Shown here: one piece after another, positions 13,727 through 63,358 of the stretch
How positions within the stretch are numbered: position 1 is the first letter of the stretch
How the letters are laid out: each line of letters opens with the position of its first letter
Assembly: GCA_046056395.1 (NCBI GenBank)
Contig: CM100124.1
Location: 574,968-638,967, forward strand
DNA: 64,000 nt
Direction of reading: 5' to 3'
Origin: Mugilogobius chulae
Taxonomy: Eukaryota
The notes under the pieces: generated by a model
What the model was told of the DNA's origin: nothing
Seen by the model: the letters and a program-made list of their open reading frames with translations, nothing else
The model's database searches: none
Program-made: the position numbers and the translations under genes

Positions 13727-13875
13727 GAGTTCGGGGTCTCGCGAGGTCGGCAGCAGAGCCTGTGGCTGCAGCAGGACTGTAGTTAACCAGAGCTAATGTG
13801 AGTCACCCACCGTAGCAAGACCGGTCCGGTGGCTGCACCGGAGTTAGACTGGAGGCAGTGTGAGCCCGGGGTGAG
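13727..13875 (+). repeat. interspersed repeat (family with core GGTGGCTGCACCGGAGTTGGACTGGAGGCAGTGTGAGCCCGGGGT) abutting the acceptor of the next exon
   Basis: copies at 13727-13875 (+), 22548-22700 (reverse complement) and 23175-23240 (+). Confidence 0.7.
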
Positions 13876-13903: not shown

Positions 13904-14005
13904 GACCTGACGGCCATCGGAGTCACTAAACCTGGACATCGCAAGAAGATTTCTCTGGAGATCACTCAGCTCAACATCGCAGAGTGGCTCCCGGAGTTTA
14001 TCCCG
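13904..14005 (+). CDS. caskin1: Caskin exon, second half of SAM domain 1
   Basis: cag|GAC CTG...CCG|gtaaga; translates to [34 protein letters not shown] (Caskin1 reads [34 protein letters not shown]); phase 0/0. Confidence 0.85.
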
Positions 14006-15500
14006 GTAAGAAACGCAAACATACATGTAAACAACAACAAACAAACATCGCAGAGTGGCTCCCGGAGTTTATCCCGGTAAGAACGCAACGTACATGTAAA
14101 CAACAACAAACAAACATCGCAGAGTGGCTCCCGGAGTTTATCCCGGTAAGAAACGCAAACATACATGTAAACAACAACAAACAAACATCGCAGAGTGGCT
14201 CCCGGAGTTTATCCCGGTAAGAAACGCAAACATACATGTAAACAACAACAAACAAACATCGCAGAGTGGCTCCCGGAGTTTATCCCGGTAAGAAACGCAA
14301 CATACATGTAAACAACAACAAACAAACATCGCAGAGTGGCTCCCGGAGTTTATCCCGGTAAGAAACTCAAACATACATGTAAACAACAACAAACAAACAT
14401 CGCAGAGTGGCTCCCGGAGTTTATCCCGGTAAGAAACTCAAACATACATGTAAACAACAACAAACAAACATCGCAGAGTGGCTCCCGGAGTTTATCCCGG
14501 TAAGAAACGCAAACATACATGTAAACAACAACAAACAAACATCGCAGAGTGGCTCCCGGAGTTTATCCCGGTAAGAAACGCAACATACACGTAAACGACA
14601 ACAAACAAACATCGCAGAGTGGCTCCCGGAGTTTGTCCCGGTAAGAAACACAAATATCTACTGTAAACAACAACAAACAAACATCGCAGAGTGGCTCCCG
14701 GAGTTTATCCCGGTAAGAAACACAAACATACACGTAAACAACAACAAACAAACATCGCAGAGTGGCTCCCGGAGTTTATCCCGGTAAGAAACGCAAACGT
14801 ACATGTAAACAACAACAAACAAACATCGAGATGCTCCCGGAGTTATCCGGTAAGAAAAAACAACATGTAAACAAAACAAACAAACATCGAGAGTGGCTCC
14901 CGGAGTTTATCCCGGTAAGAAACGCAAACATACATGTAAACAACAACAAACAAACATCGCAGAGTGGCTCCCGGAGTTTATCCCGGTAAGAAACGCAAAC
15001 ATACATGTAAACAACAACAAACAAACATCGCAGAGTGGCTCCCGGAGTTTATCCCGGTAAGAAACGCAAACATACATGTAAACAACAACAAACAAACATC
15101 GCAGAGTGGCTCCCGGAGTTTATCCCGGTAAGAAACGCAAACATGATACACAGTCCGGAGTTTATCCGGTAAGAAACCAAATACATGTAAACAACAACAA
15201 ACAAACATCGCAGAGTGGCTCCCGGAGTTTATCCCGGTAAGAAACGCAAAACATGTAAACAACAACAAACAAACATCGCAGAGTGGCTCCGAGTTTATCC
15301 GGTAAGAAACGCAAAATACATGTAAACAACAACAAACAAACATCGCAGAGTGGCTCCCGGAGTTTATTCCGGTAAGAGAAACGCAAACATAACATGTAAA
15401 CAAAAAAAACAACACAACAAACATCGCAGAGTGGCTCCCGGAGTTTATTCCGGTAAGAGACGCAAATATGTACTGTAAACAACAACAAACAAACAAACAA
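13966..15500 (+). repeat. 71-bp minisatellite, about 21 copies, each unit = last 32 nt of the SAM1 exon + GT donor + ~39 nt of intron
   Basis: unit atcgcagagtggctcccggagtttatcccg|gtaagaaacgcaaacatacatgtaaacaacaacaaacaaac repeated head-to-tail from the genuine exon end. Confidence 0.9.
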
Positions 15501-15769
15501 ACACACAACAAACAAACATCACAGACCGGCTCTAGTCCGTAGTAGTATTTTATTAACTGAAAGAAGAATTAAAACCCCGTATCATTCCGGCGTCCCTTCG
15601 AAGAGACGTCCCACTTTTTCTTTATAAATTCCATTTTGTTGAGTGTCTGAAAAAAACTATGAAGCACCTGTAAAGGTTAAATATAAAAATCCCATTGTAT
15701 CCCTTTTATTTAGAGTAAAATCAGCCTCTGGGACGATCCAGACTCAGATTTCTACTGGAAACCTCCAAA

Positions 15770-16225
15770 TAAAAAAAAGTCCTCAAAAATTCAAACATTT
15801 TAACAGGACTTTTGTATTGGCTCCACCTAGATTCTTTTGAGTAATTTTAGGTCCTAAAACACATTTTTACCTCAATCACCCTCAGCTTTTACAGAGGAAT
15901 GGTCAAAACCCCAAATCTGCCAAATCTAGAGTCATTTATGTCTAAACAGCAGCTTTACCAATCCTTTTAATTACCAAAACATTTAGGTGGAATTTAGATT
16001 GTGATTTTCTTTTGTTTGGAGAAAGTTCTCACTTCTGATGAGCCTGTTGGACATCAGAAGAAAAAACTACAGATACAGCTTTAAAAAGACCCCAGACATT
16101 TGCCTGAGCTCCAAAGGATCAGGAACAGTTTTAGTTTGAATTTTTACAGATTTTAGTCAGACGTGTGAGGGGAAAAGGACGGAATGAGAAGCATGAAGAT
16201 AGAGTTTAAATCACATGTAATAGTT
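15770..16225. repeat. ~450-bp interspersed repeat, copy 1 (copy 2 at 51690-52140)
   Basis: long near-identical alignment including cacttctgatgagcctgttggacatcagaag (an internal palindrome). Confidence 0.8.
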
Positions 16226-17199
16226 TATGTTCTGTAAAAATTACAGCTGGGCTGCGATTTTTTTTGTAATCGTGATGAATCGCATGCTTGAGCTGCGATT
16301 CCGATTAATCGCATTTTACACAGAAAGTTCAATAAATTGCTTTTTTAACCCTTTTTTCTCCAAAATGTAATTTTTTAAAAAAAGTATATTTAAGGTTCTT
16401 CATTATGTAGAGTGTACAATTCTGCACATTCTGTGGTATTTTGGTTTGATGCATAATTTTAGCACCAAATTATACATTATACATAACTCAGTTTTACATA
16501 ATAATATGAGCAGTGTGAATCAGTTTGGATATTTTTAAGATCAGAATGTTATTTCATCTTGTTTAGGCTGAACAGAAATGTACAAATCCAAGCTAATGGT
16601 TCTACAACATTTTCAGTCCAGTTCAGGTAAAATTTGGGCGAAACTTTACAGAAATTTTAGAGACATGGACAGTTCCCACAGGAGTAGAAACTCAGACCAC
16701 GTCGTAATTATTACAATTTACATGAGGCCGTGCGAATAGTTCTTTTGTTTGACAGAAATGTAATATTTCTAACTTTTCAGTATTTTTTCTGGTGGGAAAA
16801 AAGTCCCTGGCCTGGTCCTCTCGGGTCAAAATAACTTGGGAAGACAACAGATTCTATAATTTTTCAAAAGTTGACATCTGGGACCAACCATGAAAGTTTC
16901 ATGTTGGATCAGAGAATTGTATTTTATTGACAAAACACCCCAAAGATAACACAATAATCCATTCTGACAATAAAATAAAAAATAAGCTTCAGTTGAATTG
17001 CTGTTGTATTTATTTCTCAAATGTTCATCGTCAGGTTTGAAGCCCGAGACATGTTGTAGATCTGCTTTTGTCGTTTGGGGTTTGATGCTGTGGAACCTTT
17101 GGCTGTTTCCTCCTGTTGACCTTTGTGTTCTGTAAATACATCCAAACAATCTTCACTGGACGCTGTTTTGAAAGCAAAGATTTGCTGCTAAACAAGCGC

Positions 17200-17960
17200 G
17201 ATTGCAACTTGTGTCACCACCAAACTTCTGCACAAATATAAGTATTCATGCCTGAGTTTGGTCACATATCTACATGTCCGTTTCTTTATAGACATGAGTC
17301 CAGTGGTTTATGGCTGAACATGTCTGGATATATGTCTCACCCGGGTGTTTAAGGGCGTATAGGAATCTGCTGCTGTCGTGTTCAAGCCTCTCTCTCTCTG
17401 CGTCTGCAGATAGAGTCGACAATCAAGGCTCACTGTCGGCGCTGCTTGCATCAGAAGCTCCTCTATGGTCTTTCTTAGCTCCTCTATAACTCAAAAGTTG
17501 TCGATGGCAGCTTGCGTCGCCCAAACTCCTGCACAAATATAAGTATTCATGCCTGAGTTTGGTCACACATCTATATGTCCGTATCTTTACAGACATGAGT
17601 CCAGCGGTTTAAGGCTGAACATGTCTGGATGTGTTTCTCACCCGGATGTTTAAGTCTGGCAGGTGTTGGAAGCCATGCCAGGAAACAAACGATGTCAATA
17701 CCGGTTCCTTAGCAAGCTTGTGTCGCCACCAAACTCTTGCACAAATATAAATATTCATGCCTGAGTTTGGTCACATATCTATATCTTTATAGACATGAGC
17801 TTGGGTTTCATCAGCGGTTTAAGGCTGAAGATGTTCGGATGTATTTCTTACCCGGTTGTTTAAGGGGCGTACAGGTCAGGCAGGTGTTGTTGCTAAAAAC
17901 ATTGGGGCCAAGCCAGGAAACAAACGATGTTAAAGCCGGTTCCTTAGCGATCTTGTGGAA
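17200..17960. repeat. ~250-300-bp tandem repeat, 3 copies, at the 3' flank of the nested antisense gene
   Basis: 'caccaaacttctgcacaaatataagtattcatgcctgagtttggtcacatatctacatgtccg...' recurs at ~17215, ~17520, ~17725; a sub-segment ctctctctctgcgtctgcagatagagtcgacaatc... reappears inside the coding region at ~18040. Confidence 0.8.
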
Positions 17961-17964
17961 CTCC

Positions 17965-20900
17965 TTAATAGAAAAATTGGATGTTGCTGTGGTGGTCCAG
18001 GCCAAGCTGAACCAGGCGGCTGTTTCCAATCTGTCTCTCTCTCTCTTGGCGTCTGCGGATGGAGTCGACGATCGGGTCCACGCTGACGGAGCTGTTTCCA
18101 TCAGAAGCTATAGCCGTCCGGTCCTCTACACGATCACCACCAGTCGGCTCAGGGATGACAGATCTCGAATACTTCTCCTGCAGCTGGGTCATCAACGCCT
18201 TGGCTGCGTCCCTCTCCTCGCCGATCCTCCGTATCTCTTCGTTGGCTTCGACACACTCCTCTGTCTTCTTCACCAGCTCATCCCTGACTCTCTCAAACGT
18301 CCGTCTGCTCTTCATAAGCTTGTCTTCGGCTTGGTCGCAGTTCTCTCTGTACCTCTTCATCTCTCCCAGGGCATTGTCGCGCTCCTCTATGGCTTCGACG
18401 CACTCCTGTCTCTTCTTTATCAGCTCATCCATGTTTTGGTCGAACTTCTTTATGAGCGAGTTTTTGGTTTGTCCCACTCTTCTTTCATTCTTCTTTGCTC
18501 GTGCTTAGCGTCTTCGCACTCCTTTCTGTACTTCCTCTTCTCAACCCAGACACTTTCGTAATCCTGTCTGCACTTTCTCAGCTCTTCTCTAGTTTAATCA
18601 CATTCCTCTCTACTCTCTCTCAGCTCCTCTCTGATTGTCCTCCTCTGCGGTGTTTTTGTCCGCTCTAAGCCTTCACCTTTCAGACAGCTCTTGTTGTCCT
18701 TTCGCTCCGTTTCTAGCTCTTCCTTAAGCCAGTCTCGCTCACGATTACAAGCGAAGACTTGTTACTTTCCGTTTCCTCAACTTCTGAACTTTTCTTCTGT
18801 CGACTCTTGATCTCGTCCATTTCCCTTTCGTGACCCTCCTTCAGCCGCTTCAAGTCGTTCTCCAGCTTCTTCTCCAGTCCCTGACGTACTTCCTTAAACT
18901 CGGCATATTTACCTTTCATGACGGCTTTCATCTCCTCTTCCATCTCTCGTTTGGTGGAGCTTAAGCGTTCTTCTTTGGCTTTCTGGAGCTGTTCTTTTTC
19001 CTCGTCGAGCTCAGCCTGGATTTGTTCCAATTGTTGCTTGTGCATTGCTTTTAGTTCTTTTGCATTTTCCTCCTGCTGCTTTTGAAGTTTAGCTTCGAGT
19101 CTGGTATTTTCTTTCCCGATTTCATCCTCCAGATTCTCGCGGAGCTGCTCTAGTTTAGCCTCAGAGTCCTCTTTAAGCTTTTCTTCTTCCTCTCTCAACT
19201 TTGCAGACAGCGACTGACGTAGAGTCTGGAGTTGCATATCATTCTCAGCCTTTAGAAGCTTCTCTTGAGCTTTGAGACTTTCTCCAAGTCGCTCTAATTG
19301 TAGCTCGGATTCCTGCTTAAGTCTTTCTTCTTCCTGCGCTCTTTTGCTAAAATCGATTCACGCAAACGTTCTAGTTTCTCTTCAGTCTCTGCCTTCAGAC
19401 GATCCTTCTCCTCTTTGATCAACCTCTCTCGCCTCAGCCGATCAGTTCTAAGCTCTTCTTCAAGTCGCTCTAATCTGTCTTCCTCCTCTTTTCTCTTTTC
19501 TCTCATTCTCTCGTCAGTCTCAGCCTTTAGACGCTCCCCCTCCTTCCAGACCATCTCCTCCTGCACAATCCGATCGATTTGGATGGCTTCCCGTAAGTCC
19601 CGTAGTTCTTTCTCAGATTCCCGCTTCAGTCTTTCTTCCTCCTCTTTTCTCTTTGACAAAAACGACTGACGCATAGTTTCCACTCTCTTGTCAGTCTCAG
19701 CCTTTAGACGTTCCTCCTCCTTCCAGATCATCTCCTCTTGCACAATCCGATCGATTTGGATGGCTTCCCGTAAGTCCTGCAGTTCTTTCTCAGATTCCCG
19801 CTTCAGTCTTTCTTCTTCCTCTCTTCTCTTCGCTGACAGTGACCGGCGCAGTTCGCTCAGTCGTTCTTCGCTTTCAGCCTTCAGCCTCTCTTCTTCGTCT
19901 CTCTTCAGTGTTAGTTCTTCTGTCACTTCCAAACTCAAATCAGGCTGGAGCTTTTGAGACGAGGGCTGGTCAAACTTGTCGACCTGGGTGATCTGGGAGA
20001 AAGATCTTTGTCTTCAGTCATGCTTACTGCTTCCTCGTTGAAGTCATTGTCATAATTTGATGGACTGTCATCACAGAAAGAGTCTAAGTCTACGTCTGTG
20101 TTGTCGTCATCTTCTTCAATCTCGGGCTTATCAGACAAGTCTGATGAAGCTCGGGAAAGACTGAGCGAACGAACGGAAGAATGGTCTATTTCCGCTTCTA
20201 AAACCTCACTCACCTGCCCTTCCTTTTCAAAAACGTCATTGTCGTAGCTTAACGGTGGTGTTGGATCATCAAAGACTGAATTTAGCGATTTTAAGTCCAG
20301 ATCTGTGTCTTCTTCCAGTGAACTACGATCTCCATTATCTGCAGGTAGTTTCAAATCATCCCCCCAAAAGTCATCTTCTGTAGCTTTTCCGTCTCCTCCC
20401 TCATCATCTTCTTTAAGAACCTCGAGTGAAGCTCGTCATAAAAGTCTGATAAATCTTCAGAAAAACTGGACGATCTGGGAGAAAGATCCTCATCCTCTTC
20501 ATTGCCTTCTTCAGAGAACTTCTCGTCTCTTGCCTTTAACCTGATCTGTTCCTCCTCATCCAGCTCCTCGTTGTAATCAAAGTCTGAATTTAGCGATTTA
20601 GGTCCAGATCTGTGGCTGCGTTATTAGGAGCCATGTCTTCTTCCAGCGAACCAAGATCTCCAATATCTAAGTTTATATTTTCTGCTGCTTTGAGAGAAGC
20701 AGCAGTGAGAAAGAGCGTGTCTTTCTTCGTCTTTGTTCTTGCGGTTGAACGTTGTTCCTGCGCTGCTTCACGCCTGGCCTTACACCTCTGCAGTAGACGG
20801 TCAATGGAGTCTTCTTCCTCGTCGTCTGTTTCTGTCTCTGAAGGCAGGGCTGTGTTATTCTCTTCGGTGTCTGAGTGCAAGTCGCGTTCGGTTGAATATT

Positions 20901-21406
20901 GTTCCTGCGCTGCTTCACGCCTGGCTTTAAACCTGGCTTTAAACCTCTGCATTAGAAGGTCAAGGGAGTCTTCTTCCTCGTCGTCCGTTTCTATGTCCGA
21001 AGGCAGGGCTGTGTTCATCTCTTCGGTGTCTGAGTGCAAGTCGCGTTCTGTCGTTTCCATTTTCGCTGCTCCTTGGTTTTTCACATTCAGCTCTTCGTCG
21101 CTCGAAAGCACATCCAGGAGCTTTCTTCTCGCTCGTCTCTGTGAAATCTGAATCATTACCGACCTCTGTGGGAAAGAACGTGTCTTTCTTCGTCTTTGTT
21201 CTCGCGGTTGTGAGTTGTTCCTGCGCTGCTCTGCGCCTGGCTTCACACCTCTGCACTAGACGTTCAAAGGAGTCTTCTTCCTCGTCGTCCGTTTCGATCT
21301 CCGAAGGCAGGGCTGTGTTCATCTCTTCGGTGTCTGAGTTCAAGTTCAGCTGCAGGTCTCGTTCTTGCGTTTCCATTTTCAGTGCTGTTTTGGTTTTCGT
21401 ATTCAT
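17965..21406 (-). CDS. intronless antisense gene nested in a caskin intron: acidic N-terminal repeats plus long E/K/R-rich coiled-coil; open frame broken in at least 5 places as assembled
   Basis: consecutive minus-strand ORFs 20960-21406, 20590-21246, 19935-20354, 19294-19938, 18713-19237 and 17965-18477 abut or overlap in different frames; three ~150-aa N-terminal repeats (METxERDLHSDTEEMNTALPSxIETDDEEEDS..RCKARREAAQEQ), then EERLKAE/REEEERLKRESEKEL heptad-like repeats. Confidence 0.6.
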
Positions 21407-21600
21407 CTCCTCGTCGCTCGAAGCACGTACGGGAGTTTGTTCTCGCTCATCTTTGTGAAATCTGATCTATCTGTGTCGTACAGCGTCAGATAAACTGTTT
21501 TTACGTGGGAGCTCTGTGTCTGTGTGGCGTTCGGTTCGCTTCTCGTCGAGTTGTGACAGAATCGCTGACGTCACAGCCTAGAAAAGCCTAGAAAGGTTGT
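21407..21600 (-). promoter_or_regulatory. putative promoter/5' UTR of the nested gene, containing a palindromic CRE TGACGTCA
   Basis: tgacgtca at ~21567-21574, ~160 bp upstream (on the minus strand) of the ATG at 21406; an upstream in-frame ATG is followed quickly by a stop. Confidence 0.3.
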
Positions 21601-22295
21601 TGCTATGGTAACGTATTAGTTTAGTTTAGTTTATTTAATGAAACAGGGACAATGCACAATATACATTAACCTAAAATAGGAGAGATGCTTTGTATCAGGT
21701 TATAGCACAAGTCGTCCCTGGCAGGTTGATTTAACAGCAGATAAAATAATAATAATTATAAATTTAATTTATACTATAGTGCTGTTCTAGACACTCAAGA
21801 CGCTTTACAGTCAAAGGCAGTTGGGTCATTCTACAGAAACGGTGCCTTTTGTGTCCTTTAGTGGAAAATGAAAATATACAAAAATCATCAAAGTGTGTGC
21901 TTTGAATTTTAAATGTTTATTTAGAGTGTTCAATTTCAAAATCCAGATATTTCAAAAACTGCTCCTTGTTTTAGAGACACAGCCGGGAGAGCTGTTGATG
22001 TTGTTGAGGAGCATGGTACTAAAATGGCCGGTACATCTTAAAACTTCTGCCACATCATTCACACTCCTACAGGTCATTCATTCTCTCAGCACTTCACACA
22101 GTCGCTTTAAAATACACACTCACATCAGTCCGTGTAAAGAAAACTTAGTATTTTATGTTTTGCCAGAATGTGACAGTGATGAAATGAACGGCCTTTCCTG
22201 TCATGAATCCATAAAGAACTTTTATACAATGATTCAAATGGTCTCAGGGCAGATTTACAGGCCTGGGACCAACTTGTGATGCACTAAAAGAAACG

Positions 22296-23800
22296 TGGGA
22301 TAGGGCTGCACGATATTGACAACAAATCTAATTGCGATTTTTTTGTTTGATATTGCGATTTCGATTCGATATTCGATATTTATTAACATGTGTACATGGT
22401 TTTTTTTCTGTTGAGCAGGCCATTTTGCAACAATATTAAAAATAAACTGCCCTACTAATGAAAAGTTACATACATACATTTTAGATTGATTGATTGGATG
22501 TTGTGCTTGATAATTCAGTTGGCCTGTATAAACAGTAACTAAAGTAACTTACCCCAGGCTCACACTGCCTCCAGTCCAACTCCGGTGCAGCCACCGGACC
22601 GGTCTGCTACGGTGGGTGACTCACATTAGCTACGGTGGTCTACAGTCCTGCTGCAGCCACAGGCTCTGCTGCCGACCTCGCCAGACCCCGAACTCACGGA
22701 GGTTCACGTTCAACGTCAGAGAATAATACATCCATGGGGAGAATACGCGATCGCTGAGCACTTTTTTCTCTCTCTCTCTTTCGCTGAGCACAAATGTAAA
22801 CAAAGAACACGCGCCGAGTTTTGAGCTTGTTTCACGTCAGTTGATTTTCTGTTTGATTTTTCGCCCACAATGGGTAAGTACGGAGGTTTATTTACATTCT
22901 ATGTGTTACATAATCGTGTAAATGTCCTATTTTTACGTATTTTGTATTATTAGTGGTAACGTAATGATTTTATTTTGAAAACTACCGGATTTACTTCACC
23001 CGCGCTCGCTTGGTTTCCTGTTATCGTGTTTTGTTTTCACAACTTCATCAAAAAGGGCTCCGGCGTCCGGCCAAAATTTGAAACAAACGAAACGGATTCG
23101 GAGCGCCGGATTGGCCGTACCGGAGACACCGGACTGGACTGTAGCTGTGTGAGCCACTCTCGGACTTTTCAAGTTAAGTAAAGACTCCGGTGGCTGCATC
23201 GGAGTTGGACTGGATGCAGTGTGAGCCCGGGGTTAGACTATTATTTAACCTGTGACAGAAATATACATCTACACCAGCAGATGGCGCCAACGTCCCCTGT
23301 AGAGCTCTGGCGTGTTATACTGGAAAAAAAACAAAAAAGATTGCTAAAACTCCAATAACAATGTTTATCTCTTAAGGACTGAGCAAACCTGCGTGACTCT
23401 GCGGTGTTTACGGACTTATATCAGTCATGCAGCTTTTATTCACTTGGATTTTATGTTTGTGAAGAAAACAAACTGGATTTGCCTCGGAAAATATTGATGC
23501 TTTGCCTGTTCAGGTAAGCGGCTAAAGCTAGCAGCATCTGCAAAATGTGACTCTTTATTTATGAGTGATTTTATTGAATACGCACTAGAACAGTCATGAA
23601 AGTCATTTTGTGCAGTTTAAAGGCCTGTTGCTGTGGTGCTGCCCTGTGTTCACTTTCGTGGTGCGCTGTGTCCAATAAAAATAAAAAAGGAGGCTAAAGC
23701 GTAAGAAAAGGAGGAATATCGAGGCTTTTGCAATTAGGTAATCACAGTTGTCAGTATTGATTCGATATCAATATATCGTGCAGCACTAATGTGGGACAAT
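22296..23800. mobile_element. DNA-transposon relic with TIR GGGCTGCACGATAT(A)TTGA
   Basis: 22298 gggctgcacgatattgacaa matches the reverse complement of 23765-23795 ttgattcgatatcaatatatcgtgcagcactaat; carries family-X repeat copies internally. Confidence 0.55.
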
Positions 23801-23939
23801 AATTTCATTCAGATACGTAAGTCCCGAAGTCAAAGATACTCAAAAGAGTTTCTACTGAAAAAGAATGTCCAGTTAGTCATGTTGTGCTAAAAATGTAAAT
23901 CTACGAAGCTTAAACCTGGTGTCCACAACACAAGTTTAT

Positions 23940-24345
23940 TCTACTGGCAGGAGGACTTGGGGCGTGGCTTAGCTCTCTTGTATTCTATTGGCAGGAGGAC
24001 TTGGGGCGTGGCTCAGCTCTCTTGTATTCTATTGGCAGGAGGACTGGGGGCGTGGCTTAGCTCTGTTTACTCTATTGGCAGGAGGACTTGGGGGCGTGGC
24101 TCAGCTCTGTTTATCTGTATTAACAGGAGGACTTGGGGGCGTGGCTCAGCTCTCTTGTATTCTATTAACAGGAGGACTTGGGGCGTGGCTCAGCTCTCTT
24201 GTTTTCTATTAACAGGAGGACTTGGGGCGTGGCTCAGCTCTCTTGTTTCTATTACAGGAGGACTTGGGGCGTGCTCAGCTCTCTTGTATTCTATTGGCAG
24301 GAGGACTTGGGGGCGTGGCTTAGCTCTCTTGTATTCTATTAACAG
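23940..24345 (+). repeat. 43-45-bp tandem repeat, about 10 copies, each unit = polypyrimidine tract + AG acceptor + first ~24 nt of the SAM2 exon
   Basis: unit ctcttgtattctattggcag|GAGGACTTGGGGCGTGGCTCAGCT; the final copy runs into the genuine exon (GAGGACTTGGGGGCGTGGCTCAGCTCCATAGGCCTGCTGCAG, translating to [14 protein letters not shown]). Confidence 0.85.
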
Positions 24346-24484
24346 GAGGACTTGGGGGCGTGGCTCAGCTCCATAGGCCTGCTGCAGTATCAGAGGAGAC
24401 TTTGTGAAAACGGATACGACTCGATGGAGATCGTCAAAGACCTGAGCTGGGAGGATCTGCAGGAGATCGGCATCACCAAACTGG
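24346..24484 (+). CDS. caskin1: Caskin exon, SAM domain 2 (major part)
   Basis: aacag|GAG GAC...AAA CTG G|gtcagg; translates to [47 protein letters not shown] (Caskin1 reads [47 protein letters not shown]); phase 0 start matches the 14005 donor. Confidence 0.85.
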
Positions 24485-24739
24485 GTCAGGACTAAATACT
24501 TTACTCTGTGTATTTGTATCGTCTTACTCTACTTTACTTTGTGTATTTGTACTGTGTTGTAGCTCTAGATCGGCAGTGGCGCTTCCATTGAATCTAATGG
24601 AAGAAGCCTAAAATGTAGTTTCTGTGGTTTAGCATGGCATTGAATTAGGCTGTGAAAAGTCATGAGGCCAAAAAGTTAAACTAATTAAAATCTTTATGTT
24701 GATGTAACTTAACAATGTGAGTCAAAGATTTAAATCCTA

Positions 24740-25808: not shown

Positions 25809-25955
25809 GGTCACCAGAAGAAGCTGATGTTGGCGGTGAAGCGAGTGTGTGAGCTGCACAGAGCCGCCGCTCAGGGGGAACTCTGAGGAGACGAGCCCCT
25901 GGGCCCCCGGAGTGTGAGGGGCCCCGAGTCCTCACCTCAGCTCCAGCAACGCTCA
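25809..25955 (+). CDS. caskin1: Caskin exon, end of SAM2 plus linker; in-frame TGA at 25883 as assembled, needing two 1-bp corrections to reach the next exon
   Basis: G|GT CAC CAG AAG AAG CTG ATG translates to (G)HQKKLMLAVKRVCELHRAAAQGEL*; the -1 frame gives GGTLRRRAP (Caskin1 reads EGGPLRRKAP); donor CAG|gtaaga at 25955/25956. Confidence 0.7.
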
Positions 25956-27834: not shown

Positions 27835-28547
27835 GACGGAGACTTGAGCGCTGAGATTCCCTGTGCTCTCTCTCGACCCGGAGAGTCTCTCAGTCTGAGT
27901 CTGTCCCACAGCGATGAGAGCCTGGCCGAGCGCTCCCGAGGGTCCGGACGCTCTCAGGACACGCCCCAGGACACGCCCCTGGACCCGCCCACAGACCTGC
28001 CCGAGTCCAGAGACCAGACCCGGACCAAACACGTCCCTCAAGGCACCGCCACGGTCTTCAAGTACCCGGCCATCCCAGCGAAGCCAAGAGTGTGTGGGTC
28101 TCCTCATGGCCCCGCCTCTTCTCCACGTGGTCCCGCCTCTTCTCCCCGTGGCCCCGCCTCCTCCCCCCGTGGCCCCGCCCTCCTGAAGCAGGCGCAGGTG
28201 TCCCGGGGCTCTCTGTCGGACGGAGAACAGGGCGAGGATGAGGAGGAGACGGTTCTTCCTCCATCCTACGCCACACTGAGCCGCCGCCGCTCGCAGAGAG
28301 GCGCTCCCGGAGGTGGCGAGGGGGAGCGCGTGGGGCGGAGCCAGTCCTTCGCCATCAGAGCGAGAAAGAAAGGCCCGCCCCTCCTCCACCCAAACGTCTC
28401 AGCTCCGTCAGCTCTCCGAGTGACGAGCAGAGCGACAGCAGTGTGTCCGACAGCCCGGGACGAGTACGGACCCTCGCCAAGGCCCTGGAGCCACGCCCAC
28501 AAGAGCCACGCCCTCAAGAGGCCTGTCCGCAAGAGCCACGCCCACAG
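27835..28547 (+). CDS. caskin1: Caskin exon, Pro/Ser-rich region (RSQSFAIRARKKGPP motif)
   Basis: cttcag|GAC GGA GAC; ORF 27823-28611 includes ...SPRGPASSPRGPASSPRGP...YATLSRRRSQRGAPGGGEGERVGRSQSFAIRARKKGPPLLHP (Caskin1 reads RVGRSHSVRAP...RSQSFAVRPRKKGPPPPPP); donor CACAG|gtacgc; the frame at the 3' end is inconsistent with the start, implying an indel. Confidence 0.75.
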
Positions 28548-28722
28548 GTACGCTCACACCTGCTTTAGCCACGCCCACAGGTACGCTCACACCTGCTTTA
28601 GTCCGGGTTAGATCTGGATTAGACCTGGTTTAGAACTTGTACTACGAAGCTAGATTGTGCTGTTGTTGTCTTTTCCGTTCAGTCTTTAATTCTGATTGGC
28701 TGTTCCTTGTGTCCAATCACAG

Positions 28723-29660
28723 GAGGGCTCTGCAGCTGGGAGGCGGGGCCAGAGCGCTGTGACGTCAGACTCGGAGTCGGAGGAGTTACGAGCTTTGGGC
28801 GGAGCTTCACAGAGCAGCTCCAGCGAGTGCATCCCATTCGCAGAGGAAGGAAATCTCACCATCAAACAGAGACCCAAAGCCCCGCCTCCTCCCGCGCCGA
28901 AGACGTCCTGGGACTGGACCAGGACCGGACCAGGGACCAGACCAAAGAGCAGCAGCAGACCACGCCGGAGTTTAACCTGAAGGAGTCGGACACGGTGAAG
29001 CGCAGGCACAAACCCAAAGACTCCGGCGACGGTTCTCCAGGCAGAAGTCCCCAGGAACCAGACAGCGCCACGTCCAGTCTGGAGGAGCTCAGGGCCTTTC
29101 CTCCGAGGCCGGCCCAGGACCTAGCGGCGTCCCCGGGGTCTGTGCTGAGAGCTGCTTCTCCGCTCAGGGCTGGTTCTCCGCTCAGGGCTGGCTCTCCGCT
29201 CCGGTTTGAGTCGTCCCTCAGACCTGGATCTCCGCTCAGACCTGCCCCGGATCGAGCCTCTTCTCCCGGTTCTCCGCTCCGGTTCGAGTCCTCCCTCAGA
29301 CCCGGTTCTCCGCTCAGACCTGCCCCGGACCGAGCCTCTTCTCCCGGTTCTCCGCTCCGGTTCGACTCCACCCTCAGACCTGGATCTCCGCTCAGAGTTG
29401 CCCAGGACAGAGCTGCGTCTCCAGGTTCTCCGCTCCGGTTCGACTCCACCCTCAGACCTGGTTCTCCGCTCAGAGCTGCCCAGGACAGAGCTGCGTCTCC
29501 GGGGTCTCTGCTGCGGCCGAGCCCCTCTTCAGACCCGGCTCTCCTGGTTCTCCCGGCTCTCTTGGTTCTCCCGGTTCTCCTGGTTCTCTGCACAGGCCTT
29601 GTCTCTCTCCCAAACCTGCCGTGGCGCCTAAACCTGTGCGCCAGAGTCTGCTCAGTCAAG
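28723..29660 (+). CDS. caskin1: Caskin exon, Pro-rich region with ESDTVKRR motif and a 20-aa SPLR coding tandem repeat; frame changes twice within the exon as assembled
   Basis: cacag|GAGGGCTCT; three successive frames read EGSAAGRRGQSAVTSDSESEELRALGG, then FNLKESDTVKRRHKPKD...(GSPLRFESSLRPGSPLRPAPDRASSP) x5, then SPKPAVAPKPVRQSLLSQ|gtcaga (Caskin1 reads ILTESDTVKRRPKAKE; PPVSPKPVLTQPVPK). Confidence 0.75.
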
Positions 29661-32665: not shown

Positions 32666-32900
32666 GCTCCGGCCGCTCGTCTCCAGGTCTGTCTGTGTCC
32701 GTGCTCCAGAGCGTGGCCTTCTCCTCGCCCCCCCGCTGCCTAAGCCCCGCCCTCAGCCCCGCCCGCTCCCCCTCCCGCAGTCACATGACCTCTCCGGGGT
32801 CACATGACTCTGAGGTGCAGCTGCGACTGGATCAGACCAGTGTGAGTCTGGAGGCGGCTCTGCAGGACGTGGAGCGCAGCCTGGAGCGGCAAACGGACTG
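32666..32900 (+). CDS. caskin1: Caskin exon (penultimate)
   Basis: ctcag|GC TCC GGC translates to (G)SGRSSPGLSVSVLQSVAFSSPPRCLSPALSPARSPSRSHMTSPGSHDSEVQLRLDQTSVSLEAALQDVERSLERQTD; phase 1 start matches the 29660 donor (G|GC); donor GGACTG|gtaata; the end phase mismatches the last exon by 1 nt. Confidence 0.7.
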
Positions 32901-33300
32901 GTAATAACCGGTTATTCATGTTTATTAAGCTCTTATTCATGTGTAACAAGCCTGGAGCGGCAAACGGACTGGTAAGAACTGGTTATTCATGTTTATTAAG
33001 GTTTATTCATGTGTTACAAGCCTGGAGCGGCAAACGGACTGGTAAGAGCCTGTTATTCATGTTTATTAAGGTCTTATTCATGTGTAACAAGCCTGGAGCG
33101 ACAGACCGACAGGTAATAACCGGTTATTCATGTTTATTAAGCTCTTATTCATGTGTAACAAGCCTGGAGCGACAAACGGACTGGTAATAATCTGTTATTC
33201 ATGTTTATTAAGCTCTTATTCATGTGTAACAAGCCTGGAGCGGCAAACCGACTGGTAAGAGACCCTTATTCATGTGTTATTAAGGTCTTATTCATGTGTA
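32878..33300 (+). repeat. ~70-bp tandem repeat, 6 copies, unit = last 21 nt of the exon + GT donor + ~45 nt of intron
   Basis: cctggagcggcaaacggactg|gtaa(t/g)a(a/g)c.ggttattcatgtttattaag(c/g)tcttattcatgtgtaacaag recurs at ~32878, 32951, 33021, 33092, 33163, 33229. Confidence 0.9.
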
Positions 33301-33775
33301 AAAGTACTGGCACTATTTTATTTATTGAACCTTTATTTTACCAGGAGGTCCCTTGAGATAAAACTTGGACAGAACAATTCAGTGAAACATTTAAACCATG
33401 ATAAACATATATATAAAGAAAAGTAAAGTATCCAGCTCAAGAATGACATTTAAAAGTTTCAATGAAGACATTTTTAAGAAGAAACTTCAAAATAGTCAGT
33501 ACCAGAAGTTTTAAAGGTTTCTGAATGTTGTTTCAAACCCAGGGAGCTGCCGTTCAGCCCAGTTCAGTGTTAATCAACTTAAACAGAAGCTACTGTGAAG
33601 AACGAGAGTTATATCCAGTGTTCGCTGGAGTCAGGAGCTGCACATGTCTGAGGCAGTTTATCCATTATGGCTTTATATATAAAAATAAGCCAGTGCTGTT
33701 GTGTTCTGAGGCTCTAAGGCAGGAGACCAGAGCAGCTCACAGGGGTGGGTCCTGAACAGTGCGTTTGTAATAAAT

Positions 33776-36436: not shown

Positions 36437-36532
36437 CTCGGCCTGCGCCGTGAAGTCCGCCGGACCATCCTGGACGACATCGGGACCATGTTCGACGACC
36501 TCGCCGACCAGCTGGACGCCATGTTGGAGTGA
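36437..36532 (+). CDS. caskin1: Caskin terminal exon, conserved C-terminal tail, TGA stop at 36530-36532
   Basis: tatcag|CTC GGC CTG CGC CGT GAA GTC CGC CGG ACC ATC CTG GAC GAC ATC GGG ACC ATG TTC GAC GAC CTC GCC GAC CAG CTG GAC GCC ATG TTG GAG TGA translates to [31 protein letters not shown] (Caskin1 ends [22 protein letters not shown]). Confidence 0.85.
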   Translation, partial: [31 protein letters not shown]

Positions 36533-47799: not shown

Positions 47800-48100
47800 G
47801 GTTTAGCTGCACAAATATGTCCGAGCACGTCAGAGCTGGGAAACCACGTGACTTTCCACTGCGGGGGTTTCCGGGACGGCAGCTGCGCCACGCCCCCTCA
47901 CGCACGCACGCACAGAGGCACGTACAGACTCACGCACAGACGCACAGTCCGTCCCAAACCTGCAGCTCAAGGTTTTCTCCTGAACCAGAGCAGGACCAGC
48001 CTCAGTCCAGGTCTAAACCCGGTCCAGACCCAGTCCAGAACCAGCCCGGATCCACGAGCCTGCACGAGCCTCCGCGCACGAGCCCAGGTGAGCCCGGAAA
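47800..48100 (+). promoter_or_regulatory. CpG-rich island in an AT-rich region; candidate promoter or non-coding first exon (CACGTGAC E-box; CAG|gtgagc donor-like site at ~48088)
   Basis: local CG density (acgtcagagctgggaaaccacgtgactttccactgcgggggtttccgggacggcagctgcgccacgcc...); no conserved protein in any frame. Confidence 0.25.
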
Positions 48101-57489: not shown

Positions 57490-57950
57490 ATGTGCACTGA
57501 CTTCAACCTGGTTTAGACCTGGTTTAGGCCTGGTTTAGGCCTGGTTTAGTCCTGGTTTAGACCTGGTTTAGACCTGGTTTAGTCCTGTTATAGTCCTGGT
57601 TTAGTCCTGGTTTAGACCTGGTTTAGTCCTGGTTATAGTCCTGGTTTAGACCTGGTTTAGTCCTGGTTTAGACCTGATTATAGTCCTGGTTTAGACCTGG
57701 TTTAGTCCTGGTTTAGACCTGGTTTAGTCCTGGTTTAGACCTGGTTTAGTCCTGGTTTAGTCCTGGTTTAGTCCTGGTTTAGTCCTGGTTTAGACCTGGT
57801 TTAGACCTGGTTTAGTCCTGGTTTAGTCCTGGTTTAGTCCTGGTTTAGTCCTGGTTTAGTCCTGGTTTAGACCTGGTTTAGTCCTGGTTTAGACCTGGTT
57901 TAGACCTGATTATAGTCCTGGTTTAGACCTGGTTTTAGTCCTGATTTTAG
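57490..57950. repeat. 11-bp satellite (CCTGGTTTAGA/CCTGGTTTAGT)n, about 40 copies
   Basis: direct reading; the same monomer is dispersed at 28598-28640, in mvp intron 1 (60760-61620, 62290-62480) and at 63360-63410. Confidence 0.9.
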
Positions 57951-58916
57951 TCCCTACAACCTTTAAAAAATCGTGAAATTAAAATCTCTCTAAACCCGAC
58001 TCGTCCTCCAGGCTCCTGCAGAGTCTCAAAAGTCTTAAAGGTCCCGTGTTAAACTGAATGAACTTCAGTCGTGTTATTCTGCTGTTCTTTTACCACATTT
58101 TTTTAAACTATTCTGCTTTTTAGGCTCTCTTATATTTTGTGGATATTTGTGGAAACTCCATCGTGTTTTTTCCACGCACTGAGAAGCTGTGGATTCAAAT
58201 GTAGGCAAATACAAGACTGGAAACACTGGAACGACATAAAAACATTTTCTGTTTGGACACTTCCTGAAAAATGCTAAACTTGTATGAATGAAGCAGAACA
58301 CAGCAGCAGCTTTGTTTCTGATGAATAATTATGTTAAAACAAGTATTAAAAAGGTGCGTAATTTAGCATCTTTGAATTTAAAATGGGAAATGTAAAGTTT
58401 TAAATGTTTTTTCTGAACATGAAGCAGCATTTTTAGACTTAAGACATGACCGACTGTAGATGGGTTTTTGGTGCGTTGGCCTGCGACATGTTTGTGTATA
58501 AAGCAGAGCTGTGGAATATATCGAATTTTAGATAATATCATGAATGTAGTTTTCAAGATATCCAAAAATGGAATATGGAGTATATCGTTCATAGTTAAAA
58601 TTGCCACAAAAAGAACCTAGTGTAAGAATAGAAAATAGAGAAAATGATGCAGTAACTTTCAATTTAGGACATAAATATAACATGTCTGCACTTCTGTGAT
58701 TCTTTTACAACATTTTACTTTGTTCACGTGACATCCCAGTATTCTCCAGACCGATAATACTTCACACAGATGTTTGTAGCTCAAATAAATCTTCAAAGTT
58801 GTAATACAAAAGTGATCAGGTCTAGTCATTTAAGGAAATCACCAGATTGAAACAGTTGAAATGATTTTTTAGATATTTAATGACAAAGTACAAAAATCAG
58901 AAATCTTCTTCACCGT

Positions 58917-60180: not shown

Positions 60181-60594
60181 ACCCACCTCTGGTCTAGATT
60201 CATGACAACGTTGTATTCTTCAACTTGAACACAGCCTATTGACGTAATAATCGTCTGAAGATCGTTATCGAGATGTGCCCAAAAAATATCAAGATATTCA
60301 TTTTTGTCAATATCACCAGCACAAGTATCAAGGTTTTATTTCATTAAAAAGAAGGATTTTGACAAGGCAAGAGATAACTGAGGGCTTAAAAAGTCTTACA
60401 TTTCTTACTTAAAGTTGTGCAGGAGCCATGTATCTCCTCTGTCTACAGTTCTAGAGAGTCATGTCTAAGAAGTCAGATCCTCTCGTTCTCCTCTTGTTCT
60501 TCTAACGTTCTCCTCTTGTTCTTCTAACGTTCTCCTCTTGTTCTTCTAACATTCTCCTCTCTTTCTTGTGTCTCCAGTTCTTTATTAAAGAGTG

Positions 60595-60758
60595 ATGTCT
60601 AAGAAGTCAGGTCCTCGAGTCGTGGACATGGATCTCCCTGTGGACGCCTCCATCATCAGGATTCCTCCTCATCACTACATCCACGTCTGGACCAGAACAC
60701 CAACATCGCCCGCGTGGAGACCGGACCCGCTGACCTACATCAGACAGGACAATGAGAG
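60595..60758 (+). CDS. mvp: major vault protein exon 1 (start codon at 60595)
   Basis: ATG TCT AAG AAG... translates to [54 protein letters not shown](R); human MVP reads [39 protein letters not shown], so the middle ([17 protein letters not shown]) is in the wrong frame as assembled; exons 2-3 confirm the gene; donor GAG AG|gtgagt. Confidence 0.8.
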
Positions 60759-61620
60759 GTGAGTTAGACCCAGTTTAGACCTGACTTAGACCTGACTTAG
60801 ACCCACGTTCTGGACCAGAACACCAACATCGCCCGCGTGGAGACCGGCCCGCTGACTTATATCAGACAAGACAATGAGAGGTGAGAAAGACCGGACCTAG
60901 ACCTGACTTAGACCTGGTTTAGACCCACCTACATCAGACAGGACAATGAGAGGTGAGAGAGACCGGACTTAGACCTGGTTTAGACCTGACTCAGACCTAC
61001 GTCCTCGACCAGAACACCAACATCGCCCGCGTGGAGACCGGCCCGCTGACTTATATCAGACAGGACAATGAGAGGTGAGAGAGACCGGACTTAGACCTGA
61101 CTTTAGACCTGGTTTAGACCCACCTACATCAGACAGGACAATGAGAGGTGAGAAAGACCGTACTTAGACCTGACTTAGACCTGGTTTAAACCCACCCACA
61201 TCAGACTGGACAATGAGAGGTGAGAGAGACCGTACTTAGACCTGATTAGACCTGGTTTAGACCCACCTACATCAGACAGGACAATGAGAGGTGAGAGAGA
61301 CCGACTTAGACCTGGTTTAGACCTGGTTTAAACCCACATCAGACAGGACAACGAGAGGTGAGAGAGACCCAGTTTAGACCTGACTTAGACCGCTAGACCT
61401 GGTTTAGACCCACTACATGGACATGAGAGTGAGAAGACCTGACTTAGACCTGGTTGACGGTTTAGACCGGTTTAGACCCACCTACATCGCAGGACAATGA
61501 GAGGTGAGAAAGACCTGACTTAGACCTGGTTTAGACCGAGTTTAAACCCACCTACATCAGACAGGACAATGAGAGGTGAGAAGACTCGACGTAGACCTGG
61601 TTTAGACCTGGTTTGCTATG
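60700..61620 (+). repeat. ~70-180-bp tandem repeat, about 12 copies, each unit = 3' end of mvp exon 1 + GT donor + intron start (which is the 11-bp CTGGTTTAGACC satellite)
   Basis: units such as acctacatcagacaggacaatgagag|gtgagagagaccggacttagacctggtttagaccc; longer units (60800-60880, 60985-61090) repeat ~60 nt of the exon (ccagaacaccaacatcgcccgcgtggagaccggcccgctgacttatatcagacaggacaatgagag|gtgaga); further copies at 62290-62480. Confidence 0.9.
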
Positions 61621-62559
61621 ATAAAACTTTATTGTCCATATGAAAACGGAAATTTGCCTTACATATCTGCAACTGCTGCAAGTCCCACATACAACAGACT
61701 TCATTCATCAACATAAAAGATAAAAATACATGAATACATGCGGTAAGATCATGTGTTCTTCCTTTGGTTTAAAAATGTGATGGAACATGACACAAAAGAA
61801 TGTTTAGATTTATTCCTCCTGCTGCAGGGAAATCGAAAACGCCGTCCAGAGAGTAAGAACTCAAACTCATTGTTTAAAACATGATCTGTGTCTGGAGATC
61901 CTGTAGACCAGCCGTTCCCAAACTTTTTGGAGCCGTGCCCCCCCTATTGGCCCATAGATTGCCTGAGGCCCCTCAGTATTATTTCACACTCCATTCAAAG
62001 TTAGTTAGAATGTATATATTTCATATTAGCATTGGGAATCACTGCTGTACCAATGCCACTGTTTTCTTTGTTTGCAAATGAGTGAATGTGCTCTCAAGGG
62101 GAGGTCCTATTTTGGAGCAGATGTTCAGAAGCCTCTGAATCCTGTTCTTTTGTTTAACCGAAAGGCCACAGAACCAAGCCTTACTGCACTAAAGCAGCAG
62201 ACTTTGGATAGTGACTATATAGAACTGCTCCAAGATGTTTCTGTTGACTCCAAAAGAGCTGAGCCTCATCAGAAACACGATTCGTTGTTGCACAAATCTA
62301 CTTTCTTAGACCTGGTTTAGACCCACCTCACTCGACAGGACAAGGAGAGATGAGAAAGACCGGGTTTAGGCCTGGTTTAGACCTGGTTTAGACTTGACAT
62401 AGACACACCTTCATCAGACAGAACCACAAGAGGTGAAAAAACAGACTTAGACTTGGTTTAATCCTGGTTCAAGCCTGGTTTACACCTGGAGATGCATTTT
62501 TCTGTCTTCAGAGCCCGTTTCCTCCCGTGGCAAATTAGATTCATGTTTTGTAGTGCTAT

Positions 62560-62941
62560 ATTCATATTTTCATCTCTCGTGTCAGAGTCCTGTTTCCTCC
62601 CCTGTGGTCTTGTAGTGTTACATTTATATTTTCTCTCGTGTCAGAGTCCTGTTTCCTCCCCTGTGGTCTTGTTGTGTTATATTCAGTATTTCTCTCTTGT
62701 CAGAGTCCTGTTTTCTCCTCTGTGGTCTTGTAGTGTTACATTTATATTTTCTCTCGTGTCAGAGTCCTGTTTCCTCCTCTGTGGCCTTGTAGTGTTACAT
62801 TTATATTTTCTCTCGTGTCAGAGTCCTGTTTCCTCCTCTGTGGCCTTGTAGTGTTATATTTATATTTTCTCTCGTGTCAGAGGCCTGTTTCCTCCTCTGT
62901 AGTCTTGTAGTGTTACATTTATATTTTCTCTCTCGTGTCAG
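62560..62941 (+). repeat. ~60-bp tandem repeat, 7 copies, each unit = polypyrimidine tract + AG acceptor + first ~25 nt of mvp exon 2
   Basis: unit ttttctctcgtgtcag|AGTCCTGTTTCCTCC(T/C)CTGTGG(T/C)CTTGTAGTGTTACATTTATA repeated; the final copy is the genuine exon-2 start. Confidence 0.9.
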
Positions 62942-63137
62942 AGTCCTGTTTCCTCCGCTGCGGATGCTGATGGTGCCTCCGCGTCACTACTGCGTCATCC
63001 TCAATCCCGTTGCCCGCGACGACAACGACCAGGTCCAGTTCGACCAATCAGGGCAGGCCAAGCTGAGACACGCCGACCAGGAGATCCGCCTCACCCAGGA
63101 CCCGTTCCCCCTGTACCCCGGGGAGGAGGTCCAGCAG
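62942..63137 (+). CDS. mvp: major vault protein exon 2
   Basis: gtgtcag|A GTC CTG TTT translates to (R)[65 protein letters not shown] (human reads [67 protein letters not shown]); phase 2 start matches exon 1; donor CAG|gtatga. Confidence 0.9.
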
Positions 63138-63235
63138 GTATGAACCCTCTGTAACCCTCTGTACCCCGCTGTGACCCGGGGAGGTACTGAACCCTCCTGT
63201 ACGTGTCTGAACCCTCCTGTACGTGTGTTTTTCAG

Positions 63236-63358
63236 GACGTGACGCCGCTGCAGATCGTCTTTCCCGACACGGCTCTGAGGCTCCAGGCTCTGCTCGAGTT
63301 CACCGACTCCAAAGGAACCAGAGGACGGCCGGAGACGAGTGGCTCTTCGAGGGACCAG
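63236..63358 (+). CDS. mvp: major vault protein exon 3 (1-bp deletion frameshift near aaaggaacc as assembled)
   Basis: tttttcag|GAC GTG ACG CCG CTG CAG translates to DVTPLQIVFPDTALRLQALLEFTDSKG; the -1 frame then gives [15 protein letters not shown] (human reads [41 protein letters not shown]); donor CAG|gtctga. Confidence 0.85.

Follow-up and report, generated by a model that had tools for sequence, protein, structure and literature searches.

In the fish Mugilogobius chulae, the 3' splice junction in front of the exon that opens the second SAM domain of a Caskin gene is reiterated in tandem, and the genuine exon start is the last of the copies. With a probability of roughly three in four, we regard this array as a minisatellite that arose, in this lineage only, from the 3' splice junction of the gene itself. 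The stretch of DNA that was analysed, hereafter the window, covers 64,000 nt (assembly GCA_046056395.1, contig CM100124.1, positions 574,968-638,967, forward strand), and all coordinates given below refer to it. In the sequences, a slash marks an exon-intron boundary.

23937-24371, forward strand: acceptor-side junction minisatellite, 10 units of 42-45 bp (Tandem Repeats Finder and unit table)
24344-24345, forward strand: AG of the authentic 3' splice site, ttaacag/GAG GAC TTG GGG GCG TGG
24346-24484, forward strand: first exon of the Caskin SAM2 domain (SAM2a), 139 nt, 47 residues (Pfam SAM_1/SAM_2, PDB Caskin-1/Caskin-2, tblastx to L001-L003)

Homology identifies the gene as a fish Caskin gene and the exon bearing the array as the first exon of its second SAM domain, in agreement with an earlier note on this DNA, which had recognised a SAM2 exon here. 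SAM2a, which ends at the donor CTGG/gtcagg (24485), matched Pfam SAM_1 at 2.3e-12. Its best structure match was the SAM2 domain of Caskin-1 (PDB 8z8w/3sei, E 3e-20 to 5e-19), Caskin-2 being also matched, and a stretch of 14 of its residues aligned with NLAVWLSMIGLAQY of Caskin-1. Four matched fish contigs (L001, L002, L003 and L004) were used as relatives. The order of the SAM domains fits a Caskin gene, with the SAM1 exons before and GHQKKLMLAV, a Pro-rich region and the Caskin tail after (tblastx, L001-L004), and the Pfam Caskin-tail and Caskin-Pro-rich families match the contigs of the relatives. The other Caskin exons and the intron that carries the array were placed as follows, the exons by tblastx, against the relatives.

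11851-11968, forward strand: SAM1a
13904-14005, forward strand: second SAM1 exon (SAM1b), the upstream partner exon, 34 residues followed by gtaag
14006-24345, forward strand: intron with the arrays, 10,340 nt, phase 0
from 25809, forward strand: SAM2b
27.9-29.7 kb, forward strand: Caskin Pro-rich exons
ending at 32901, forward strand: Caskin tail exon
36461-36499, forward strand: Caskin exon RTILDDIGTMFDD

The position of the exon start decides whether the repeated sequence is coding, and the earlier note had itself raised the alternative of a true exon start elsewhere, with the shared nucleotides being intronic. The comparisons argue for the coding nature of these nucleotides. Homology to the four relatives and to human Caskin-1 starts at 24346, the DNA alignment of the window with three of the fish contigs shows similarity starting exactly past the AG, and all of the 24 homologous exon ORFs of other animals, short ORFs obtained as matches from a search of 5.8 billion proteins, read (c)ag/xDLGEWLS, where x is S or A. 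Since the similarity starts exactly at the AG, the 25-26 nt repeated in the array are ancestral coding sequence rather than intron, and the exon extends over 24346-24484. A Glu-to-Ala change (GAG to GCG) in this exon is specific to M. chulae.

Tandem Repeats Finder delimited a head-to-tail array with a period of 44, 9.9 copies, 91% matches, 3% indels and a score of 657, and the exact motif CAG/GAGGAC occurs 10 times in it, as expected from the ten tandem copies initially reported. The acceptor AGs stand at 23949/50, 23993/4, 24037/8, 24080/1, 24125/6, 24170/1, 24214/5, 24256/7, 24299/300 and 24344/5, with successive spacings of 44, 44, 43, 45, 45, 44, 42, 43 and 45 nt. Each unit is made of about 19 nt of pyrimidine-rich intron ending in CAG (tcttgtattctattRRcag) followed by the first 25-26 nt of the exon, in the form GAGGACTTGGGG(G)CGTGGCT(C/T)AGCTC. 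The last unit runs on into CATAGGCCTGCTGCAG and is the only one contiguous with the rest of SAM2a. The description of the unit as a polypyrimidine tract, an AG and the exon start, with the genuine exon as the last unit, is therefore upheld by the start of homology at 24346, with some corrections to its dimensions: the array ends at 24371 and not at 24345, the shared exon part, put at 24 nt, measures 25-26 nt, and the unit length, previously given as 43-45 bp, has a lower limit of 42 bp.

The units fall into sub-types, with GGC or AAC before the AG and with four or five Gs in the exon part. The 26-nt exon part with five Gs (GAGGACTTGGGGGCGTGGCTCAGCTC) is common to the authentic copy and to units 4 and 5, and unit 9 is one base off this version (CTTAG for CTCAG). 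The mean pairwise identity among units is 87%, and their identity with the authentic unit ranges from 78% to 96%. Units 4-5 recur as units 9-10, forming an 85-nt two-unit block with 91% identity, which indicates that the array grew partly by multi-unit steps. The residues EDLGAWLS, which had been attributed to every unit, are encoded by units 4, 5, 9 and 10 only. The four-G units encode EDLGRGSA, as does the four-G 24-mer that had been quoted as the shared exon start; this 24-mer has 5 matches at no more than 3 mismatches, against 0.00 expected from 100 shuffles, and the 44-mer quoted for the whole unit has exactly one occurrence, at 23975. Given a possible assembly indel error or a pseudogene, neither the copy number of the array nor its unit lengths and 4G/5G heterogeneity can be taken as final.

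A long ORF through the array (23957-24376) had also been pointed out. It exists, but its frame is that of the first pseudo-acceptor and not that of SAM2, and it stops 31 nt inside the exon. As stop codons are confined to a single one of the three frames of the array unit, a long ORF through the array is without meaning. The 139-aa array ORF, used as a query, matched nothing at E <= 0.001 in a collection without this species or its near relatives, and exact look-up of the SAM2 ORF, the array ORF and the nested-gene ORF found nothing on record. The composition of the collection was deduced from a control query joining the SAM1b exon and the first donor unit of the same intron: it gave 76 matches, of which the best 12 by query coverage stop before the donor-array sequence, indicating that M. 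chulae and its near relatives are absent from it. Translation of the array was considered and rejected, given the TAA in frame 0 of the AAC-type units and the inability of the two open frames to link the phase-0 upstream exon to the SAM2 frame.

Elsewhere in the window the array unit was not found, the only similarities being matches of 11-17 nt to the GGGCGTGGC core. Since it occurs at no other place in the window, the unit is not a dispersed element, and a dispersed or transposon-borne minisatellite was rejected on this ground. An Rfam scan of the whole window gave no match at or above the gathering score of any family.

Upstream of the authentic acceptor, the array presents nine complete pseudo-sites, and a stop codon lies just before the last CAG.

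23949-24300, forward strand: nine pseudo-3' splice sites, the first nine AGs listed above (from 23949 to 24299), with C at -3 in all
24340-24342, forward strand: TAA in the exon frame inside the last polypyrimidine tract (TAT TAA CAG/GAG), from reading of the sequence

By simple measures the decoy acceptors are as strong as the authentic one, with 11-15 pyrimidines in the 19 upstream nt versus 14 for the authentic site. Over positions -19 to +26, units 6 and 9 are each one position off the authentic unit: the G run of unit 6 has another length, and unit 9 has a T where the authentic CTCAG has a C. Folding of the array and its exon as RNA (z of -2.0, with 6 of 100 shuffles being as stable) does not point convincingly to a structure that masks the decoy acceptors. 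When joined in phase 0 to the exon at 13904-14005, every decoy leads to a premature stop; eight of them reach it after 13-57 codons, and site 1 after 141. The TAA at 24340-24342 ends any read-in from the upstream acceptors that keeps the exon frame, and the other paths are out of frame in SAM2. Because every decoy gives a premature stop, only the last copy would be productive, and the alternative acceptors in the array could give only non-productive mRNAs. We infer the acceptor in use only from the conservation of the protein.

Compared with the four relatives, the array is specific to the lineage of M. chulae. Their orthologous intron is 97 nt long in L001, 141 nt in L002, 79 nt in L003 and 89 nt in L004, with a single acceptor in each, and the preceding exon ends in EWLP(D/E)YIP/gt in all four. 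None of these four introns contains the array, and L004 is without any tandem repeat there. An origin of the intron itself from a tandemly duplicated exon segment containing AGGT was discarded, the intron being present at the identical phase-0 position in the four relatives. The exons that flank the intron are under purifying selection: over SAM1b and SAM2a (240 nt), dN/dS of M. chulae is 0.13 versus L003, 0.06 versus L001 and 0.07 versus L002, values no higher than those among the relatives themselves.

The same intron carries a second array at its other end, of donor type.

13973-15495, forward strand: donor-side junction minisatellite of the same Caskin intron, 71-bp unit, 22 copies of CCG/GTAAG, the authentic donor being the first

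Its unit comprises the last 33 nt of the SAM1b exon (11 residues) and 38 nt of intron (gtaag and 33 nt). Between the two arrays, the intron harbours E/K-rich coiled-coil ORFs on the minus strand (17200-21460), nested antisense in the Caskin gene and themselves repetitive, with periods of 177 bp and about 300 bp; a Pfam search with six of the minus-strand ORFs of the intron gave only a sub-threshold CCDC93_CC coiled-coil match. Two 51-nt inverted repeats (22548-23236), 92% complementary and separated by 587 nt, resemble the termini of a small transposable element, and a sequence similar to them is found shortly before the SAM1b exon (13820-13875). Outside the intron, a 33-bp duplication with 86% identity (24497-24558) is located 12 nt past the SAM2a donor; it is intronic and does not include the junction. 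Further upstream in the gene, a (TC)n-rich tract of 2.1 kb (7795-9915) ends about 45 nt upstream of the Caskin exon GTPRRQTVTVQ (about 9961-10060) and amounts to a hugely expanded acceptor pyrimidine tract.

For the origin of the acceptor-side array, we propose a tandem duplication of about 45 bp across the junction, taking in 19 nt of intron end and 26 nt of Caskin SAM2 exon start; slippage or unequal exchange would then have raised the number of copies to 10, with at least one multi-unit step. Each unit is probably a self-sufficient 3' splice site, because the CTCAG or CTTAG derived from the exon supplies an A resembling a branch point (with U at -2), 24 nt before the next AG. The authentic acceptor probably wins over the decoys, since it alone precedes the purine-rich 139-nt exon and its donor and the decoys precede the next pyrimidine tract. 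For a productive mRNA, the first of the 22 identical donors at the 5' end of this intron would have to be joined to the most distal AG, and nonsense-mediated decay would clear the mis-spliced transcripts. Against this explanation count the duplicated-site experiments cited in PMC1557585, in which the proximal copy was used, that is, possibly the wrong, upstream acceptor in the present case. The array itself is most likely without function, as a tolerated by-product of a genome where short ancestral introns grow by junction-overlapping duplications.

Junction arrays are not limited to this intron. Others were found in the Caskin gene and, over 60420-63240, in the neighbouring gene, identified as the major vault protein (MVP) gene by the conceptual splice RQDNER/VLFPPLRM compared with rat MVP (E 1e-53).

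28534-28601, forward strand: perfect donor duplication in Caskin, 33 bp, 2.1 copies, AGCCACGCCCACAG/GTACGCTCACACCTGCTTT
32878-33301, forward strand: donor-side array at the end of the Caskin tail exon, 71 bp, six copies, after SLERQTDW/gtaa
60681-61614: donor-side array in the MVP intron that follows RQDNER, 10 copies of GAG/GTGAG, periods 71, 122 and 194
62548-62960: acceptor-side array in the same MVP intron, 59-bp unit, 7 copies

The SAM1/SAM2 intron of Caskin and one intron of MVP thus share the presence of arrays at both ends, donor-type at one and acceptor-type at the other, and the MVP intron consists nearly entirely of its two arrays, apart from a 0.7-kb insert. Degenerate donor-type units (62300-62490) adjoin the MVP acceptor array. 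MVP exon 2 has its acceptor and ATG region in two copies (60449 and 60578), which are separated by a 22-bp pyrimidine minisatellite, and the MVP intron following the array-bearing one has only about 96 nt. In the whole window, Tandem Repeats Finder reported about 12 loci with a period of at least 30 bp. At least five of these long-period arrays, and probably seven, sit on splice junctions, the junction inside the unit being confirmed by protein homology in 5 and predicted in two more. For a randomly placed 60-bp unit and an assumed 20 to 100 junctions, chance would put 5 or more of the 12 on junctions with a binomial probability of 1.6e-6 to 3.3e-3. Two arrays lie within coding exons, with periods of 177 and 78 bp, both multiples of 3.

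These junction arrays might be the footprint of a systematic, junction-preferring duplication process lengthening ancestral introns of 80-140 nt from both ends, a generalisation that we hold to be doubtful; candidate drivers would be transcription- or splicing-coupled, pyrimidine-tract-driven or motif-driven instability. An ordinary account is equally allowed: in compact genes with introns of 80-140 nt, most of the 40-70-bp duplications touching an intron would span a junction, and selection would remove the exonic ones that break the frame. A single sequence motif behind all the junction arrays was rejected, GGGCGTGGC being present in three arrays only.

Two further repeats of the window were recorded. 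A 164-bp unit is present in 2.8 copies at 2412-2865, with copies 2 and 3 degenerate; it looks like a whole mini-exon of 48 nt with both splice sites (cctcag/ACCGACGACGG...AACGCAG/gtaa) and its flanking intron. An 11-bp satellite motif, AGACCTGGTTT, forms a 40-copy array (57507-57953) and occurs also in the intron past the Caskin donor 28546 (28619-28634), in the MVP donor-side unit (60760-61614) and at 62305-62460.

Two readings competing with a minisatellite born from the splice junction start from the same irregularities of the conserved exons. Downstream of the array, the reading frame of the Caskin exons shifts at least four times (near 25875, near 28375, within 28893-28950 and near 29600), with the amino-acid similarity persisting in the new frame past the breaks, and in the first copy of the MVP exon 2 repeat two compensating 1-nt indels (60690-60745) alter a stretch of 13 residues. 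Both could reflect a recent pseudogene or relaxed constraint, the decoys being tolerated because correct splicing no longer matters. We find this explanation unlikely: the breaks that could be located to the base (around 25875 and 28375) fall in G or C runs and are followed by continued conservation, a pattern typical of indel errors in a consensus; the breaks occur in both of two neighbouring genes that are unrelated; and relaxed constraint would leave the junction position of the arrays unexplained. The dN/dS values of 0.06-0.13 in the flanking exons also speak against it, although a very recent decay is compatible with such values. The simplest reading of the frame breaks is that they are consensus indel errors in the assembly, and these 1-nt breaks in conserved exons of two genes then lend some weight to the idea that the array itself is an assembly artefact, either nonexistent or with an inflated or wrong copy number. 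Such an artefact is very unlikely in our opinion, as the units differ at about 13% of positions, form sub-types and include the 85-nt block recurring at 91% identity, unlike the collapse or expansion of identical copies, and as five other junction arrays with different units are found within the same 64 kb.

The retention of the decoys invites a regulatory interpretation, in which the array would be a functional ladder of alternative acceptors lowering Caskin output through unproductive splicing coupled to nonsense-mediated decay, with an effect that copy number could tune. The CAG and pyrimidine tract are intact in 9 of 9 decoys, with no decay, and every alternative leads to a premature stop, as such a ladder would require. 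Youth or homogenisation of the array explains this retention equally, however, the array is present in no relative, and the similar arrays on unrelated nearby junctions indicate a mutational rather than a regulatory origin; we consequently give this interpretation slightly less credit still than an artefact. An action at the DNA level, through a cluster of GGGGCGTGGC, which we take to be a GC-box or KLF-like site, or through a recombination hotspot motif, seems barely credible. The 9-mer GGGCGTGGC (reverse complement GCCACGCCC) does occur 22 times versus 0.1 expected, with 20 of the 22 in three separate tandem arrays, and it was created in the exon by the species-specific Glu-to-Ala change, but the junction arrays at 13973, 32878, 60681 and 62548 are without it. 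Its occurrences are located at 2413-2891, 23960-24364 and 28490-28576, and also at 47887 and 56841.

A splice site reiterated by a minisatellite is one of the few situations in which nature itself tests how the spliceosome chooses among identical sites, and the human donor-side cases, F7 above all, have served to argue for 5'-to-3' scanning. The Caskin array poses the mirror question, as the last-transcribed of ten equally good acceptors would have to win for the protein to be made, and one pre-mRNA offers 22 x 10 donor-acceptor pairings of which one would be productive. If the density of junction arrays in these 64 kb holds genome-wide, they would point to a specific route by which short teleost introns grow. 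They also constitute traps for gene predictors and for short-read spliced alignment.

Competition between several AGs at one intron end is also known from NAGNAG and other short-range tandem acceptors, which have a 3-nt spacing and give in-frame variants. The Caskin array resembles them in this competition, but its sites are 42-45 nt apart, each has its own pyrimidine tract, and the alternatives would all be non-productive. It is closer to junction minisatellites, from the head-to-tail units of 42-45 bp, the terminal monomer containing the genuine boundary and the near-identical pseudo-sites, and departs from the donor-side pattern with an authentic first monomer by its acceptor-side location and its authentic last monomer. 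In the full-text literature, no natural acceptor-side junction minisatellite was found, which is weak evidence of absence given that most subscription journals are outside the coverage, and no description of junction arrays in fish was found either, with the same incomplete coverage.

Human minisatellites with a first monomer spanning the exon-intron boundary include, according to PMC1557585, those of IFI6 (6-16) intron 2, CBS intron 13, LMNB2, PDGF intron 4 and F7 intron 7. The best comparison is with the 37-bp VNTR of F7, in which, as in Caskin, a terminal monomer spans the boundary and the authentic site is reiterated as pseudo-sites (PMC1557585). The most upstream of 5-9 identical donors is the only one used in F7 (PMC1557585); that only the exon-contiguous copy gives normal mRNA is experimentally established there and predicted from sequence here. 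The F7 array lies on the donor side; its 5-9 units combine 4 nt of exon with 33 nt of intron, and the authentic site opens the series. The Caskin array lies on the acceptor side; its 10 units combine 19 nt of intron with 26 nt of exon, and the authentic site closes the series. IFI6, CBS, LMNB2 and PDGF have the same architecture as the Caskin array, with copy numbers in the range of 10-26 and units of up to 100 bp; all are donor-side, and for none of them is a counterpart array reported at the opposite intron end.

On the acceptor side, the engineered duplications of gamma-globin IVS2, cited in PMC1557585, likewise place identical 3' splice sites in tandem competition. These constructs are artificial, have two copies and reportedly use the proximal one, whereas the Caskin array is natural, has 10 copies and would need the distal one for the protein. 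Tandem repeats at exon-intron boundaries also reshape introns in young human segmental-duplication paralogs (PMC2812944). They overlap the boundaries and alter intron structure as the Caskin array does, but they create novel introns or alternative transcripts in young paralogs, whereas the position of the Caskin intron is ancestral and its length alone has changed. By these comparisons, the Caskin array would be the mirror-image, acceptor-side variant of a class known on the donor side in human genes.
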